The notes under the pieces were generated by a model, which saw only the letters and a program-made list of their open reading frames with translations, made no database searches and was not told where the DNA came from. This document shows positions 27,266 to 32,695 of a stretch of DNA of 64,000 nt, piece by piece. The stretch comes from an uncultured Bacilli bacterium (GTDB lineage: Bacteria > Bacillota_I > Bacilli_A > RF39 > UBA660): NCBI GenBank assembly GCA_910583945.1, contig CAJTYF010000005.1:1402-65401 (forward strand), read 5' to 3'. Positions within the stretch are counted from its first letter, which is position 1. Every line of letters starts with the position of its first letter. Position numbers and translations under genes: made by a program.

Positions 27266-28396
27266 ATGAAATTAGAGAAGTTTACAAAAGGTAGTAAAAA
27301 AAGAAGTCAGGCTGTTATTTTTTTCGCTATAGCGGTTTGTTTGCTAGCGGCAGGATTTATTCTTTATCGAACGTTTGCGTTTTATGAAGAAAAAAGAGAA
27401 TTTAATGTTTTGCAAGGAAGGATTGGAGATTTTGATTATGATGTAAAGCTTGCAATAGTGGTTGATGGAGAAAAAGTAGATAAAGTACCTGAACGTGGTC
27501 TTTATAGTGTAGTAAGTACATGTAATGAAGGAGAAGCTTCAACTTGGGATTATAATGCTTGGGCACTATCTATAGAAAATATTCAAACGAATACAAAGTG
27601 TAAGGTTACTTTTACTTCAGGACTCAGTGATACAGAGTATAATAAATACATCGAAGCTGGAATTGCATTAAGAAGAAATACGTATCGAGGAAAAGATATC
27701 ACTAGTTATTATAATGATGGAAGTCTTTATACCATGATCAGTGATGGAACGTTTAAAGATATTTATGTAGGGGATTTTTTTAATGTCAATGGCGTAACAT
27801 GGCTTGTTGCGGACATCGATAATTATTTGCATAGTGGAGATCAAGATTTAACGAAACATCATGCAACGATTATCCCAGCAAAGCCATTAATGAATTTGGG
27901 AATGAATGAAACAGATACCACAGAAGGTGGGTATTATAATAGTAGAATGGCTCAAGAAACCTTACCGAGTCTAGTGGCGGCTGATGGAACAATTGGAAAA
28001 GCTTTCGGTGCTCATTTAATCGAGTATCGTAATCTGTTATCAAATCGAATTAATAAAGATACCATTAATCAAAGTGGAGGAAGATGGGTTGGAGCAAGTG
28101 ATGAATGGGGATGGTATTCAAGAAAAGCTGATTTAATGAGTGAAGTGAATGTCTATGGAACAACAGTGTGGTCATCAAGTGGCTATGATATAGGAATAGA
28201 TAATCGTCAGTATGCAATTTTTCAACTAAAACCAGAGTATATTAATAGTTATGGGACAGCAAGATTTCATTATTGGTTAAAAAGTGTCTCTGGTGCGACT
28301 AGGTTTGCTCATGTCGCCGGTAACGGGAATTCCGGCTACACCTGGGATGGCGCGTCCAACGCGTATGGTGTTCGCCCCCGCTTCCTGATCGGTTAA
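27266..28396 (+). CDS. DGR target (variable) protein: N-terminal signal-anchor, C-terminal C-type-lectin-like variable region
   Basis: TM helix 'AVIFFAIAVCLLAAGFILY'. The C-terminus 'YWLKSVSGATRFAHVAGNGNSGYTWDGASNAYGVRPRFLIG' is encoded by the VR, which matches the three downstream template repeats. Confidence 0.85.
   Translation: MKLEKFTKGSKKRSQAVIFFAIAVCLLAAGFILYRTFAFYEEKREFNVLQGRIGDFDYDVKLAIVVDGEKVDKVPERGLYSVVSTCNEGEASTWDYNAWALSIENIQTNTKCKVTFTSGLSDTEYNKYIEAGIALRRNTYRGKDITSYYNDGSLYTMISDGTFKDIYVGDFFNVNGVTWLVADIDNYLHSGDQDLTKHHATIIPAKPLMNLGMNETDTTEGGYYNSRMAQETLPSLVAADGTIGKAFGAHLIEYRNLLSNRINKDTINQSGGRWVGASDEWGWYSRKADLMSEVNVYGTTVWSSSGYDIGIDNRQYAIFQLKPEYINSYGTARFHYWLKSVSGATRFAHVAGNGNSGYTWDGASNAYGVRPRFLIG
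28285..28379 (+). repeat. DGR variable repeat (VR)
   Basis: 95 nt align without gaps to 29692-29786 (TR3). There are 12 mismatches, and 10 of them sit at template adenines. The homology core 'tctctggtgcgact...gcgtccaacgcg.atggtgttcgccccc' is shared with all three TR copies. Confidence 0.9.
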
Positions 28397-28434
28397 TCCT
28401 CAAATCTGACCCCCTTGTGGGGTCTTGAGGATTA
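28394..28434 (+). promoter_or_regulatory. nested GC-rich hairpin immediately 3' of VR (candidate DGR target-recognition cruciform and/or attenuating structure)
   Basis: 10-bp outer stem (taatcctcaa at 28394-28403 pairs with ttgaggatta at 28425-28434). 6-bp inner stem (gacccc at 28408-28413 pairs with ggggtc at 28419-28424) with a 5-nt loop. It starts at the stop codon. No T-run follows. Confidence 0.6.
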
Positions 28435-28455
28435 AAAAGAGAAGGAGGAATTTTG

Positions 28456-29016
28456 ATGAGTGTTGTAAAAAGTAAAAGAAAGCTTTCAACAATGGAGTTT
28501 TTTCATAACGCTCTTTTGTTAAGAAAGAGCGTTACGGAACTTTTGATGCGTGATTTCGGTGTAAAAGGATTCAAGCGAAATATCAAATTTGTAGGAAGTG
28601 TTGAACATTTTGAACCAGAAGATAAAATATTGGTGGAAGAAGTGTTTGAAAAATACAATATGGGTAGATGTTTTGAAGATGAATATCCTGAGTGGTTGAT
28701 TGATAAAGAAAGAGTTTATTTTTTGGATATCTTGCGAAGCTTGATAAAAAATATTGTAAAAGCGAATACAATTTATCCGGTTAATATGAATGAATATAAA
28801 GAAAGAAGAAGTTATCAAAATAATGCCATTGGGGATTGTGAAGATCTTCTTCAAGAAATGCAATATATGATTTCAATTGTTCCAGTCGATGCTGAAAAAT
28901 ATATGCAATATGTAGAAATGATTGAAAAAGAAATTGCTCTTTTGAAAGGGTGGCGAAAAGGAGATAATAAAATTGCCAGTCGATTAGAAAAGAAAAAAGA
29001 AGAGTCGAAAGACTAA
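28456..29016 (+). CDS. avd: Avd-like accessory variability determinant (basic four-helix-bundle-type protein), unusually long
   Basis: Lies between the target and the TRs. Lys/Arg-rich, predicted all-helical. Strong RBS 'ggagg' 8 nt before the ATG at 28456. The assignment rests on context plus composition, not on a motif I can name. Confidence 0.6.
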   Translation: MSVVKSKRKLSTMEFFHNALLLRKSVTELLMRDFGVKGFKRNIKFVGSVEHFEPEDKILVEEVFEKYNMGRCFEDEYPEWLIDKERVYFLDILRSLIKNIVKANTIYPVNMNEYKERRSYQNNAIGDCEDLLQEMQYMISIVPVDAEKYMQYVEMIEKEIALLKGWRKGDNKIASRLEKKKEESKD

Positions 29017-29039
29017 AAATTTGTGGTATGTAGTAGTGG

Positions 29040-29095
29040 TAATCCGTTTCAAAAATATATGAATTAAGTATAATTCAATTTGATACGGATTTTTT
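29040..29095 (+). terminator. long AT-rich hairpin plus T5 after avd (possible terminator or 5' structural part of the DGR RNA)
   Basis: aatccgt (29040-29046) pairs with acggatt (29084-29090). An inner tgaatt/aattca stem is present. Followed by ttttt at 29091-29095. Confidence 0.3.
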
Positions 29096-29132
29096 GTGTT
29101 CAAAAATATTGGATAAAATTTGTAATCTTGGT

Positions 29133-29227
29133 TGTCTCTGGTGCGACTAGGTTTGCTAATGTCAGCGATAACGGCAATTCCAACAATGGCTGGAACGCGT
29201 CCAACGCGAATGGTGTTCGCCCCCCCC
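29133..29227 (+). repeat. DGR template repeat copy 1 (TR1)
   Basis: Shares both ends with the VR. AAY-rich core 'aatgtcagcgataacggcaattccaacaatggctggaacgcgtccaacgcgaat'. One codon shorter than VR/TR3. Ends in C8. Confidence 0.8.
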
Positions 29228-29413
29228 TGATTCGATATGTTCATAGATAGTAAGACTACGAGTCGATATGAAAATATGGAAGGAAATTTTATCCATCCGA
29301 AAGGTAAAAATAAATTTTGATGTTACTAGATACGTCTAGGGTAACTAAAAACAAAATTGATGGAAGATATATTAGTTTTTTTATAGATGTTGGGTAAAGC
29401 TTGTATAGCTTAG

Positions 29414-29506
29414 TGTTCTCTGGTGCGACTCAGTTTGCTAATATAGGCGGTTGGGGTGATTCCAATAACAACTGGAGCGCGACCAACGCGAATGGTGTTC
29501 GCCCCC
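29414..29506 (+). repeat. DGR template repeat copy 2 (TR2)
   Basis: Core 'aatataggcggttggggtgattccaataacaactggagcgcgaccaacgcgaat'. The most divergent copy. One codon shorter than VR/TR3. Ends in C5. Confidence 0.75.
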
Positions 29507-29691
29507 TGATTCGATATGTTCATAGATAGTAAGACTACGAGTCGATATGAAAATATGGAAGGAAATTTTATCCGTCCGAAAGGTAAAAATAAATTTTGAT
29601 GTTTTTCTAAATACGTTTAGGAACTGTTTACAAAATAATAAAATGGATTGTTATATTAGATAAATTATGGGTAAAATTTGTAATATTGCTT

Positions 29692-29787
29692 TGTCTCTGG
29701 TGCGACTAGGTTTGCTAATGTCAACAGTAACGGTGATTCCAACAACAACTGGAATGGCGCGTCCAACGCGAATGGTGTTCGCCCCCC
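29692..29787 (+). repeat. DGR template repeat copy 3 (TR3), best cognate of the local VR
   Basis: Same length as the VR. Core 'aatgtcaacagtaacggtgattccaacaacaactggaatggcgcgtccaacgcgaat'. By hand count, 10 of its 22 adenines are substituted in the VR. Ends in C6. Confidence 0.9.
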
Positions 29788-29955
29788 TGATTCGATATGT
29801 TCATAGATAGTAAGACTACGAGTCGATATGAAAATATGGAAGGAAATTTTATCCATCCGAAAGGTAAAAATAAATTTTGATGTTACTAGATACGTCTAAG
29901 GTAACTAAAGACAAAATTAACTTAATAAATTAAGAGTTTTAAGTAGAATAGATGG

Positions 29956-29998
29956 TGAATTAAGATTTCTTTTTCCACGCAAATGAAATCTTAATTCA
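29956..29998 (+). promoter_or_regulatory. perfect 14-bp inverted repeat (15-nt loop) between the last TR cassette and the RT start
   Basis: tgaattaagatttc (29956-29969) pairs with gaaatcttaattca (29985-29998). No T-run follows. Located 62 nt upstream of the RT ATG. Confidence 0.5.
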
Positions 29999-30060
29999 AC
30001 ACCTCATATCTTGACTTTGCCTCTTTTCTACTCAAAAGTTTTAATAAAAGGTGAAAGATT

Positions 30061-31248
30061 ATGAATAAAGAAATGAAAATTTTAAGTGATGCCAATCAAT
30101 TGATTGAAGCTTTTAATCAAACTAAAAAGGAAAGTATATGGAAAGAATCTGTACAAAATTATGAAGCCAATTTACTTCGAAATACTTACTTACTAAGAAC
30201 GAGTTTAAGAGATGGGACCTATAGACAAAGAGCCTTTTATGAGTTTACTTTAAATGAAAGAGGTAAAACAAGATATGTGAAATCTATGCATATTACTGAT
30301 CGAGTTGTTCAAAGGAGTTTATGTGATAATATTTTGATTCCTAGACTTCAAAATTATTTGATTTATGATAATGGAGCGAGTCTTAAAAATAAAGGGATTG
30401 ACTTTTCTAGAAAACGATTGGAGACACATTTGCATCGTTTTTATCGAAAAAATGGAAGTAATGAGGGCTATGTTTTACTAATTGATTATAGTAAATTTTT
30501 TGATAATATTCGACATGATAAATTGGCGGAGCTTTTAGAAAAGAAGATTGATTCTCCTGAATTTATGACATTTGTGAAGCAGCTTCTTAAGACCTTTTCT
30601 ATTGATGTGTCTTATTTATCTGATGAAGAATATAAAAACTGTCTAAATAAGCTCTATAATTCTTTGGAACATTCAAAAATTGACCGAAGTTTATTAGTTG
30701 GAGAAAAAATGATGGAAAAGTCAGTAGGAATTGGAAGTCAAATTTCTCAAATATGTGGTATTTATTATCCAACAAGAATTGATAATTATTGTAAAATTGT
30801 TAAGGGCATGAAATATTATGGAAGGTATATGGATGATGTTTACGTAATTCATAAGGATAAAGAGGTATTAAAACAATTATTAAAAGAAGTGGATGAATTA
30901 TCTAAAGAATTAGGATTGTTTATTAATCAGAAAAAAACACAAATTGTTAAATTAAGACATGGTTTTACTTTTTTTAAAATTAAATATAATTTAACAGAAA
31001 GTGGGAAAGTTTTAAAACGATTAGTACCAAAAACCATTACAAGAGAAAGACGGCGACTTAAAAAGTATAAAAAATTAATGGAAGAAGGGAAAATGAGTTA
31101 TAAAGATATCGAACTTGCTTATAAGTCTTGGCGAGGAAATGCTTTAAGGTATCATGCTTATACGAGTGTTAAAAATTTAGATGCTTTGTTTGACCAACTT
31201 TATGTAAAAGAATGGAAAGGAAAGAATGAAGATGAGCTTACTTTATGA
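30061..31248 (+). CDS. DGR-type reverse transcriptase
   Basis: RT motifs 'LLIDYSKFFDNI', 'SVGIGSQISQICGIYY' (the DGR-specific I/LGxxxSQ block), 'GRYMDDVYVIH' (YxDD) and 'GLFINQKKTQIV'. RBS 'aaaggtga' before the ATG. Confidence 0.95.
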   Translation: MNKEMKILSDANQLIEAFNQTKKESIWKESVQNYEANLLRNTYLLRTSLRDGTYRQRAFYEFTLNERGKTRYVKSMHITDRVVQRSLCDNILIPRLQNYLIYDNGASLKNKGIDFSRKRLETHLHRFYRKNGSNEGYVLLIDYSKFFDNIRHDKLAELLEKKIDSPEFMTFVKQLLKTFSIDVSYLSDEEYKNCLNKLYNSLEHSKIDRSLLVGEKMMEKSVGIGSQISQICGIYYPTRIDNYCKIVKGMKYYGRYMDDVYVIHKDKEVLKQLLKEVDELSKELGLFINQKKTQIVKLRHGFTFFKIKYNLTESGKVLKRLVPKTITRERRRLKKYKKLMEEGKMSYKDIELAYKSWRGNALRYHAYTSVKNLDALFDQLYVKEWKGKNEDELTL

Positions 31249-31591
31249 TCAATATCAAAATTTAAAAGAGAGAGATAAAGACACTTATTATTTGTTTCGA
31301 AGTGGGAATTTTTATATTTTTTTAGGAGAGGATGCAGATCGTATTAACCAGTTTATGGTTTTAAAACGAACACCTTTTTGTAAAGAAACTATAAAATGTG
31401 GTTTTCCAGTAAGAAGTTTAGAGGCCTATTTAAAAGTTTTTAAAAATCATGGTCTTACGATTCGAGTTATTGAAAAGGAGGAAAAAAAGAGTATTGAACC
31501 CATTCTTAAAGATTTAAAAAAGTTGGATATTGAGGCGATTACTCCAATTAAAGCTTTAAATATTTTGAAAGAAATTAAAGATTCGCTTTAA
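31226..31591 (+). CDS. stand-alone MutS domain I-like (mismatch-binding N-terminal domain) protein, DGR accessory candidate
   Basis: 'YDQYQNLKERDKDTYYLFRSGNFYIFLGEDADRINQFM...KCGFPVRSLEAYLKVFKNHGLTIRVIEK' aligns by eye with the MutS N-terminus ('[34 protein letters not shown]...[28 protein letters not shown]'). Overlaps the RT gene by 23 nt. Confidence 0.7.
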   Translation: MKMSLLYDQYQNLKERDKDTYYLFRSGNFYIFLGEDADRINQFMVLKRTPFCKETIKCGFPVRSLEAYLKVFKNHGLTIRVIEKEEKKSIEPILKDLKKLDIEAITPIKALNILKEIKDSL

Positions 31592-31610
31592 TTAAAGGGA
31601 AAGTTTTATA

Positions 31611-31638
31611 AAAAGGCTTGCTCGCAAGTCTTTTTTTT
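31611..31638 (+). terminator. rho-independent terminator closing the DGR operon
   Basis: aaaa-ggcttg-ctcg-caagtc-tttttttt: a 6-bp stem (one G-U pair), a 4-nt loop and a T8 run. Confidence 0.75.
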
Positions 31639-31765: not shown

Positions 31766-32695
31766 ATGGCCGTTGTTTCTATGGGATATTTATTAGAAGC
31801 AGGAGTTCATTTTGGACATCAAACCAAAAGATGGAATCCAAAAATGAAGCAATATATTTTTGCAGCAAGAGATGAAATACATATTATTGATTTACAAAAA
31901 ACAGTAGAAAAATTAGAAGAGGCGTATGCCGAAGTTAAGTCTATTGCAGATAATGGAGGTACTTTCTTATTTGTAGGGACTAAAAAGCAAGCCAGTGAAG
32001 TATGTAGTGAAGAAGCGATTCGTAGTAATAGTTACTATGTTTGTGAAAGATGGCTTGGTGGAACTTTAACAAATTTTAGAACGATTAGAAGAAGAGTAAA
32101 ACGTCTTGAAGAAATTGAAGCAATGGAAACAAATGGTGTTTTCGAAGTTTTACCGAAAAAAGAAGTTATTGGTTTAAAGAAGGAATATGATAAATTAAAC
32201 CGTGTGTTATGTGGTATAAGAGAAATGAATAAATTACCACAAGCGATTATTATTGTGGATCCTAAAAAAGAAATTAATGCAATAAGAGAAGCTAGAAAAT
32301 TAAATATACCTGTTTTTGGTATAGTGGATACGAATTGTGATCCAGATGATGTTGACTATCCGATTCCAGCAAATGATGATGCAGTTCGAGCTGTAAAAGT
32401 CGTGATTGGTGTTTTAAACAATGCGATTTGTGAGTCAAGAGGACTTGAAATGGTTGATTATGTAACCGAAGATGATAAGAGCAAATCTGTGACTTCTATG
32501 CCAACTGATATATCTGTTAAACCTACTAAAGAAGAAAATGGAGAAAAAAAGGTTCGTAAAGAACAAGAAAATACTTCTAAAGAAAAAGATTATGAAAGTT
32601 TAAATTTATCTGAACTTAAAAATATAGCTCGTGAACAAGGTGTTAAGGGTTATTCTACAATGAAAAAAGAAGAAATTATTAGTCAATTAAAATAA
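31766..32695 (+). CDS. rpsB: 30S ribosomal protein S2 with a C-terminal Rho_N/SAP-like extension
   Basis: '[19 protein letters not shown]', 'FVGTKKQA', '[10 protein letters not shown]' and 'VDTNCDPD' are canonical S2. About 75 extra C-terminal residues end in '[31 protein letters not shown]'. Confidence 0.95.

Follow-up and report, generated by a model that had tools for sequence, protein, structure and literature searches.

A 64-kb stretch of contig CAJTYF010000005.1 from an uncultured, low-GC Bacilli bacterium of the gut (the window, position 1 being its first letter) carries a diversity-generating retroelement (DGR), which is the subject of this analysis. The element consists of a target gene ending in a variable region (VR), an Avd-like accessory gene, a non-coding array of template repeats (TRs), a reverse transcriptase (RT) and a small MutS-like gene, Msl. 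A first-pass annotation had proposed a complete chromosomal DGR with these parts, and open reading frame (ORF) and repeat analysis placed each of them at or near the position first assigned to it. That annotation had also listed the TR array, which is indeed present, but it did not recognise the array as the unusual part of the element. The canonical architecture of one TR per RT is broken here by three units, each a TR with its spacer, and comparison with sister strains indicates that different units of such arrays write the same VR. We consider it likely that the locus is a chromosomal DGR in which a tandem array of alternative templates serves to diversify the ligand-binding tip at the C-terminus of a surface protein anchored in the membrane. 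The features on which this reading draws are the following.

27266-31638, + strand throughout: the whole DGR element, from ORF and repeat analysis of the 64-kb window
27266-28396, + strand: target (variable protein) gene, 376 aa, an ORF with 482 homologues
27311-27370, + strand: signal-anchor of the target, residues 16-35 (AVIFFAIAVCLLAAGFILYR), from the sequence and a helix in the AlphaFold2 (AF2) model
28286-28377, + strand: VR, 92 nt, the length of TR3; the substituted window is about 28310-28364
28365-28396, + strand: GC-rich VR 3' end in common with the TRs (GGTGTTCGCCCCC), then a VR-specific flank (GCTTCCTGATCGGTTAA), from the alignment of VR and TR 3' ends
28393-28435, + strand: hairpin or cruciform immediately after the VR, folding as DNA at -14.8 kcal/mol (z -6.0), a value matched by 0 of 200 shuffles
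28453-29016, + strand: Avd-like gene, 187 aa (TTG start; ATG at 28456), matching PHROG 3206 'Avd protein of DGR', E 1.9e-7
Between the Avd-like ORF (ends 29016) and the RT (starts 30061), + strand: non-coding stretch of about 1 kb that holds the TR array
29110-29362, + strand: template unit 1; leader 29110-29126, TR1 29134-29222 (89 nt with 20 adenines, one codon short of the VR), spacer Sp1 29223-29362 (type A)
29391-29646, + strand: template unit 2; leader 29391-29407 (degenerate), TR2 29416-29504 (19 adenines, likewise one codon short of the VR), spacer Sp2 29505-29646 (type B)
29668-29924, + strand: template unit 3, RT-proximal; leader 29668-29684, TR3 29693-29784 (92 nt, 22 adenines), spacer Sp3 29785-29924 (type A)
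29956-29998, + strand: strong single-copy hairpin downstream of Sp3 and ahead of the RT; 14 uninterrupted pairs, RNA fold z -3.1
30061-31248, + strand: DGR-type RT, 395 aa; RVT_1 E 1.8e-15, phrog_1423 (a phage RT family) E 3e-67
31226-31591, + strand: Msl (MutS-like), 121 aa, a stand-alone MutS domain I whose start overlaps the RT stop; PF01624, 48 bits against a cut-off of 20.6
31611-31638, + strand: terminator-like hairpin and T8 after Msl, with a 6-bp stem GGCTTG/CAAGTC

Donor units of the variable region

The three units lie in tandem, head to tail, at 29108-29925, with start-to-start distances of 277-282 nt. Exactly four copies of the repeat's conserved 5' and 3' ends are present in the 64 kb, one in the VR and three in the TRs, against 0.06 and 0.00 expected, and the spacer core in three copies against 0.04 expected. 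The window VR differs from TR3 at 12 positions, 10 at TR3 adenines and two elsewhere, and from TR1 and TR2, both one codon shorter, at 5-9 non-adenine positions, so that unit 3 is, on this alignment, the evident donor of the present window VR.

Related loci, numbered with the prefix L, give a broader picture. The template units of a locus's array are called u1, u2 and so on, and donor fits are written as mismatches at adenines/at non-adenines/gap columns. Three loci from different assemblies, L057, L058 and L060, are identical over 10.1 kb apart from 30 alignment columns, all of them within the VR, and their three-unit arrays are identical to one another. The first-pass annotation had expected VR hypervariability against an invariant TR among close strains, and this trio bears it out. 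The L058 VR fits u2 (12/0/0) and is one codon shorter than the other VRs, the L057 VR is identical to u1, and the L060 VR is a mosaic; in L055, which has the same array, the VR fits u3 (9/0/0). The four-unit array of L056 has an internal donor, unit 3 (6/0/0). With a two-unit array, D*-B, the VRs of L053 and L061-L064 come from the proximal unit with 8-10 mismatches at adenines and 0-2 elsewhere (for L061-L064, u2 at 8/0/0), and the VR of L148 comes from the distal unit, u1 or D*, with 13 mismatches at adenines, and carries an ATT marker private to D*. A TR2-type template is a proven VR donor in L055, L061 and L053. When seven clean TR/VR pairs of the lineage are combined, 57 of 123 adenines are changed and 4 of 497 other positions (Fisher p 7e-41).

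At the protein level, target proteins with 90% identity or more still have hypervariable VR peptides, and within such clusters these peptides can be sorted by length and fixed residues into discrete classes corresponding to the array units. Taken at the level of assembled sequence, these comparisons show different units, internal and distal ones included, in evident use for one VR in sister strains; from the same strains we infer that TR1 and TR2 of the window strain are probably active.

Some VRs are best described as chimeras. That of L149 fits best with its 5' part from the distal unit and its 3' part from the proximal one, which lowers the non-adenine mismatches from 6 to 1; a similar chimera in L065 lowers them from 4 to 2, and the private marker of that locus's own unit 2 is present. 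The L148 VR also maps the bounds of a transfer. The D* unit has a 1-nt deletion at its extreme 5' edge and a mutated GC-rich end, and the L148 VR has neither the deletion nor the extreme 3' substitution of D* (regions compared: L053 3152-3165 and L148 1860-1945). As this VR is in frame, the 5' junction of the transfer must lie downstream of the deletion; the 3' boundary falls inside GGTATT|CG(T/C)CC. Separately, in a comparison of L003 3768-3870, 4678-4772 and 4958-5052, both TR units of that locus have, relative to the VR, an extra GGT codon and GAT for AAT near the 3' end. Either the transfer boundary there lies upstream of the GGT/GAT point, or the element of L003 is inactive now.

What weighs against the use of several units on one VR is best considered together with the alternative that each point favours. 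The most conservative of these is a canonical single-template DGR, in which only the RT-proximal TR3 works and TR1 and TR2 are decaying leftovers of duplication. The window VR does match TR3 alone, with no trace of TR1 or TR2 use in the window strain; TR2 has a 1-nt insertion at its 5' edge (29415-29417), D* of L053 has its 1-nt deletion and mutated GC-rich end, and the make-up of the arrays shifts fast between strains, as that of unconstrained tandem repeats would. We nevertheless find this quite unlikely in view of the unambiguous non-proximal donors, namely unit 3 of 4 in L056, unit 2 of 3 in L058 and, in L148, the 'defective' D* itself, whose ATT marker was passed on. The internal units, moreover, retain 19-20 adenines in AAC/AAT codons, and their spacer helices are kept by compensatory changes.

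The class switches of the VR could also be read as cassette-type gene conversion by homologous recombination, of the pilE/pilS or vlsE kind, with the TR units as silent cassettes and the RT adding point diversity later. In all switches but one, 40-60% of the donor adenines are changed and essentially nothing else, which is the signature of a single RT-mediated step. In the chimeras the two parts always have different sources, one unit for the 3' part and a second for the 5' part, a pattern that cDNA integration with its anchor at the VR 3' end would produce. The flanking homologies are short for RecA. The exception is L057, whose VR is 100% identical to u1 with 0 of 8 adenines changed; at the pooled RT rate the chance of this is about 0.007, and some non-mutagenic transfer is therefore indicated. 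In addition, units and VR have 15-25 nt of flanking identity in common, and chimeric VRs are typical of segmental gene conversion. We would give conversion a small chance as the explanation of the class switches.

A third alternative is that the extra TRs serve remote VRs in other target genes, as in multi-target DGRs like that of Treponema. Our view is limited to 64 kb, and remote VRs served by TR1 and TR2 may lie beyond it; DGRs with several targets have been described, as have some that combine two TRs with several VRs (PMC5758913, PMC6642488), and one metagenome-assembled genome (MAG) yields two partial target homologues (P0177, P0209). Against this, there is no second VR within the 64 kb, and the local VR in sister strains bears the length and fixed-residue markers of different units. 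Because the local VR carries these markers, the units act on it whether or not other targets exist, and as an account of the array this alternative seems to us unlikely.

All of this evidence comes from assemblies, in which mixed populations could yield consensus or chimeric VRs, and the mosaics are less secure than the single-donor cases. That the array and the VR classes are themselves artefacts, collapsed or mis-joined repeats of short-read metagenomes, is in our judgement exceedingly improbable. The L001 contig does break inside the array, and 280-nt repeats and hypervariable regions are hard for short-read assemblers. On the other side, matching array structures are found in independent assemblies from different samples and pipelines, the L057, L058 and L060 loci are base-identical outside the VR, and the window contig spans the array with unique flanks. 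Contigs of 30,924 and 30,927 nt differ by exactly 3 nt, and the difference tracks a one-codon difference in VR class.

Two further points on the unfavourable side belong to no particular alternative. The two non-adenine mismatches between the window VR and TR3 are adjacent (GGTGAT against GGGAAT) and are left unexplained by any chimera of the three TRs; a two-unit chimera had been considered as their source and was rejected, as no combination of TRs accounts for them. The Avd-like protein has no Pfam, NCBIfam or PDB sequence match, profile search included, and its support from sequence is modest.

Structure and variation of the template array

Each unit has the same parts. A leader motif, TGG(G/A)TAAAATTTGTAAT, stands directly 5' of every TR, including the single TR of L004 and of L006, and may be an RNA element for the RT or Avd, or a region where the cDNA stops. 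The motif is not a clean extended -10 element. The TRs translate as Asn-rich peptides with AAC/AAT codons, and TR2 has a fixed block, GGCGGTTGGGG, that encodes GGWG. The repeat cores had been described as conspicuously GC-rich in a low-GC region, which measurement confirmed at 0.40-0.48 (VR 0.46-0.48, TRs 0.40-0.42) against a background of about 0.28.

After each TR, those of single-TR relatives included, comes a spacer of about 140 nt with a six-helix fold. Across 14 units, internal and type-B units among them, 98.9% of cells are paired, and two-sided changes affect 13 of the 34 pairs. Shuffled controls gave 5.2 +/- 1.5 such two-sided changes, with 0 of 500 reaching as many, and slid controls gave 2-4; the type-B hairpin too is held by compensatory changes. 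Single-sequence folding of the spacers is no better than for shuffles (z -0.2 to -0.6), and with folding energies so unremarkable it is the covariation that carries the structure.

The junction of TR and spacer is a poly-C tract, C8 in unit 1 (29215-29222), C5 in unit 2 (29500-29504) and C6 in unit 3 (29779-29784). The tract varies between orthologous units of near-identical strains, the TR2 type having C4 in L065. It lies where cDNA synthesis should enter the TR, and such a slippage-prone tract could modulate the choice of unit.

Two hairpins flank the array. The single-copy hairpin before the RT is found in sister strains too and is less complementary in L001. At 29041-29095, right after the avd stop, there is a long imperfect hairpin followed by a U-run (z -2.6), which may terminate the target-avd transcript; if it does, a separate transcription start for the TR array is implied. 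In a promoter scan, promoter-like sites were no commoner than in shuffles, and for this reason we make no claim for per-unit promoters.

We placed the array among its relatives by RT-based scans, which gave 52 loci from one genome per species and 80 loci from IMG/VR. Nearly all of them have the canonical order target-avd-TR-RT, a single TR and adenine-biased mismatches. No tandem TRs were found outside the window's lineage among the 45 other genome loci and the 80 IMG/VR loci of the same RT clade, so that arrays of 2-4 units are confined to this lineage among about 125 relatives. The nearest relatives, with RTs 70-99% identical, come from the gut of mouse and rabbit and are MAGs of low-GC 'Bacilli/Tenericutes'. 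Scans of Joint Genome Institute (JGI) metagenomes with the VR flank pattern and with the hairpin pattern gave no match.

Within the lineage, one unit is found in L002, L004 and L006, two in L003, L053, L061-L066, L148 and L149, three in the window, L055 and L057-L060, and four in L056; L001, whose contig begins inside the array, has at least three. Strains whose flanks are 99.1-99.9% identical to the window have differing arrays, and a single species has at least five TR types and at least four array layouts.

Reverse transcriptase and accessory proteins

RTs of the DGR clade have [LIV]GxxxSQ in place of the QGxxxSP of group II introns, together with a YxDD box. In the window RT the corresponding motifs are IGSQISQ (residues 224-230) and YMDD (256-259), and both are invariant across 14 relatives. 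A profile search against solved structures gave as best match 8ub7, a chain of 328 aa deposited simply as 'Reverse transcriptase' (E 8e-21, compared with about 1e-9 for group II and retron RTs). We take 8ub7 to be the Bordetella phage DGR RT (bRT). The NCBIfam models for group II RTs, retrons and defence-associated RTs (DRTs) were all far under their cut-offs with this protein. The profile check thus places the RT, as the first-pass annotation had supposed, in the DGR clade rather than with group II introns or retrons. A reading of the RT as a defence RT (DRT or retron) was rejected, PADLOC having given generic RT matches only, and PADLOC returned nothing for the element's other three proteins. 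Relatives of the RT carry TR/VR pairs with adenine-biased mismatches. All the testable features that define a DGR are present at this locus: the RT motif, the adenine-biased TR/VR pair, the VR 3' context and the hypervariability of the VR.

An Avd is expected to be a small, basic four-helix-bundle protein whose gene adjoins the TR. The Avd-like gene lies between target and TR in all relatives. Its AF2 model is a helical bundle (predicted local distance difference test, pLDDT, 84.6). Foldseek placed 2gsc and 2rld on top and matched the Bordetella phage Avd, 4dwl, with probability 0.97, TM-score 0.68 and a root-mean-square deviation of 2.2, at weak E-values of 0.1-0.7.

The alignment of Msl covers residues 14-99, approximately, of Taq and E. 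coli MutS. Msl reads GNFYIFLGEDA where Taq MutS reads GDFYECFGEDA; the mismatch-stacking Phe is retained and the Glu is replaced by Ile, leaving the protein without an intact Phe-X-Glu motif, with which MutS contacts mismatches. The gene follows the RT in L001, L002, L004-L006 and L053-L066. What had been annotated as a MutS-I-like ORF is, judging by its domain match and its setting, the already described accessory gene Msl, a small (112-283 aa) MutS-domain-I homologue of avd-containing DGRs (Wu et al., PMC5758913). In Bacteroides, host MutS lowers DGR retrohoming 5-10 fold and a mutS mutant raises it (bioRxiv 10.1101/2024.11.15.621889). Msl probably helps the heavily mismatched cDNA:VR heteroduplex escape MutS and mismatch repair, a shielding role that is consistent with the rise in retrohoming in the Bacteroides mutant.

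The terminator proposed after Msl fared less well: the hairpin and T8 are visible in the sequence, but a consensus scan did not call them and their folding energy is no better than that of shuffles.

Target protein

The target begins with a basic N-terminal tail and a single hydrophobic helix. A stalk rich in beta structure comes next, and the C-terminal part is a globular, DUF6273-like domain that ends in the VR. Its AF2 model (pLDDT 81.6) has a long helix at residues 10-42. The tail, KGSKKRSQ, precedes the signal-anchor, and by the positive-inside rule the topology is predicted to be N-in/C-out, with the variable tip facing outward. Fold matches in BFVD are to phage receptor-binding and DUF6273 proteins (E 1e-20 to 1e-3); the DUF6273 match by sequence is weak and covers residues 314-375. 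A search of the PDB with the target, by sequence profile and by fold, gave no match. Elsewhere the DUF6273-like fold has been termed C-type lectin-like (CLec-like; PMC10743442), which gives the C-type-lectin tip proposed earlier indirect support. In the DGR variable proteins Mtd and TvpA, the VR residues are on a solvent-exposed face of a CLec fold.

The VR ends 17 nt before the stop codon, which is at 28394-28396, and the flanks of VR and TR diverge beyond GGTGTTCGCCCCC. The GGTGTTCGCCCCC/GCTTCCTGATCGGTTAA region resembles an initiation of mutagenic homing (IMH) site. The hairpin after the VR is retained, with altered sequence, in L003, L004 and L006.

The target body outside the VR (window 27266-28280 against L057 4501-5520) is 85.8% identical, against 99.4-99.7% for the flanking 4.5 kb and the region from RT to rpsB. 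On this comparison the target gene is an island of allelic divergence extending well beyond the VR, through recombination or diversifying selection.

Chromosomal site

Upstream of the element lie murG, an ftsQ-like POTRA gene and queH, and downstream rpsB, tsf and frr. Several relatives have the element at the same queH/rpsB site, with RTs there just 71-86% identical. A more distant MAG (L052, 2942-7749) has at this site a decayed DGR consisting of a target homologue (55%), an avd fragment and a 51-aa RT remnant. Since the site is constant across RTs so diverged and holds a remnant in L052, the element is a long-established chromosomal resident and not a recent insertion, and the earlier description of it as 'inserted' between queH and rpsB is misleading.

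No tRNA, tmRNA or Rfam family at gathering score was found in the 64 kb, the best match at the locus being a chance snoRNA match (E 0.21). Nearly all ORFs of at least 150 aa in the window are on the + strand. The neighbouring ribosomal protein S2 (31766-32695) is extended at its C-terminus by about 85 aa, the last of them forming a Rho_N domain (PF07498, residues 275-307).

A model of the array and its evolution

We suggest that each unit is a self-contained DGR RNA module made up of the leader motif, the TR and the structured spacer of about 140 nt, and that each, in the manner of the Bordetella phage system, would be transcribed and would prime a cDNA of its own. Together with the Avd-like protein, the RT would copy one TR RNA into cDNA with misincorporation opposite adenines, and this cDNA would replace the VR beginning at the GC-rich 3' end beside the hairpin. 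Because all units have the 5' and 3' homology of the VR, any of them should be able to overwrite the same VR; because they differ at non-adenine positions and by 1-2 codons, the array would multiply the sequence space that can be reached. Chimeric VRs could arise by partial overwriting from the VR 3' end or by template switching, and both routes fit the constant polarity of the chimeras.

The templates themselves appear to change in an unusual manner. In L003, u1 and u2 differ at 18 positions, 16 of them adenines of u2 and none of them adenines of u1, and u1 retains the TR-type 3' end. L057 u1 has eight adenines left, and its sequence is that of the L057 VR. L001 u2 and L056 u1 and u3 are likewise adenine-depleted, and L056 u3 is still the active donor. 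Nor are TR bodies tied to their leader and spacer flanks, as the TR2 type is found in a type-B slot in the window and in the RT-proximal type-A slot in L053, L055 and L057. These alignments suggest that a TR slot now and then receives mutagenised cDNA or a VR, although transfer in either direction would be compatible with them.

A more ambitious reading, tentative and in our judgement rather doubtful, is that the TR array is an evolving, heritable library edited by the DGR itself, in which selected VRs or cDNA create adenine-depleted, 'frozen' templates that fix working residues and have fewer positions still free to vary. The cases that fit are L003 u1 (an A-to-N copy of u2), L057 u1 (equal to the VR) and L056 u3 (partly frozen and active). 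If this were true, the element would carry out a hierarchical search, with coarse choice of template followed by fine mutagenesis of adenines, and would keep a memory of past solutions. Gain and loss of units by unequal crossing-over, and chimeric VRs, would be part of that search, and the TR would not be fully protected from self-homing.

In the usual description a DGR has one invariant template, and diversity is confined to the adenines of a TR of fixed length. An interchangeable array would lift this limit by bringing in variants of length, alternative fixed scaffolds and chimeras, and it gives a view of how the templates may themselves evolve. The locus bears on how a TR is protected from its own cDNA, as adenine-depleted copies occupy TR slots, and on where information transfer starts and stops, as private unit markers map the boundaries. 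For engineering, it may offer an example from nature of how TRs can be multiplexed in directed evolution with DGRs, an effort now under way in E. coli, and it is convenient to follow, being small, constant in its chromosomal location and found in many assemblies from mouse and rabbit gut.

Comparison with known systems

The DGR as such is ordinary and belongs to the Msl-containing subset; the unusual part is the multi-template array, with its donor switching, chimeric VRs and possibly self-edited templates. With the DGR of Bordetella phage BPP-1 (mtd-avd-TR-brt) the element has in common the order target/VR-avd-TR-RT, adenine-specific differences between TR and VR, a GC-rich VR 3' end followed by a hairpin, and a structured spacer RNA between TR and RT. 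Unlike BPP-1, it has three TR-plus-spacer modules, is chromosomal and has the extra Msl; its target is a membrane-anchored, DUF6273-like protein and not an Mtd tail-fibre tip, and its Avd-like protein, at 187 aa, has an N-terminal extension.

The Msl-containing DGRs of Legionella and of Bacteroides (Bfr, Bth, Bun) are likewise chromosomal, with surface-protein targets and Msl beside avd and RT (PMC5758913; bioRxiv 10.1101/2024.11.15.621889). These are described with a single TR, whereas in the window the TR is arrayed and Msl is translationally coupled to the RT through overlapping stop and start.

More than one TR per RT is not in itself new. In the literature searched for tandem or multiple TRs, mainly open-access and so not proof of absence, the only such DGRs have two or three TRs and pair every TR with a separate VR, and the large DGR surveys do not discuss TR arrays. 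The DGR of Stenotrophomonas sp. SKA14 has two TRs and six VRs (PMC6642488), and the Zeta crAss-like phage Lera has TR1-3, its extra pairs being interpreted as decaying (PMC12386605). In both, the TRs have separate partners, one or more VRs for each TR and in different genes, whereas the lineage of the window has 2-4 head-to-tail modules, one VR, donor switching and chimeras.

In the pilE/pilS system of Neisseria and the vlsE system of Borrelia, silent cassettes lie near one expressed locus, and segmental replacement produces mosaics. The likeness to the array is a functional analogy only, without homology, and transfer in the window's lineage bears the adenine signature of the RT. Unlike silent cassettes, which are copied in fixed form, each cassette of the window type would seed a cloud of variants.

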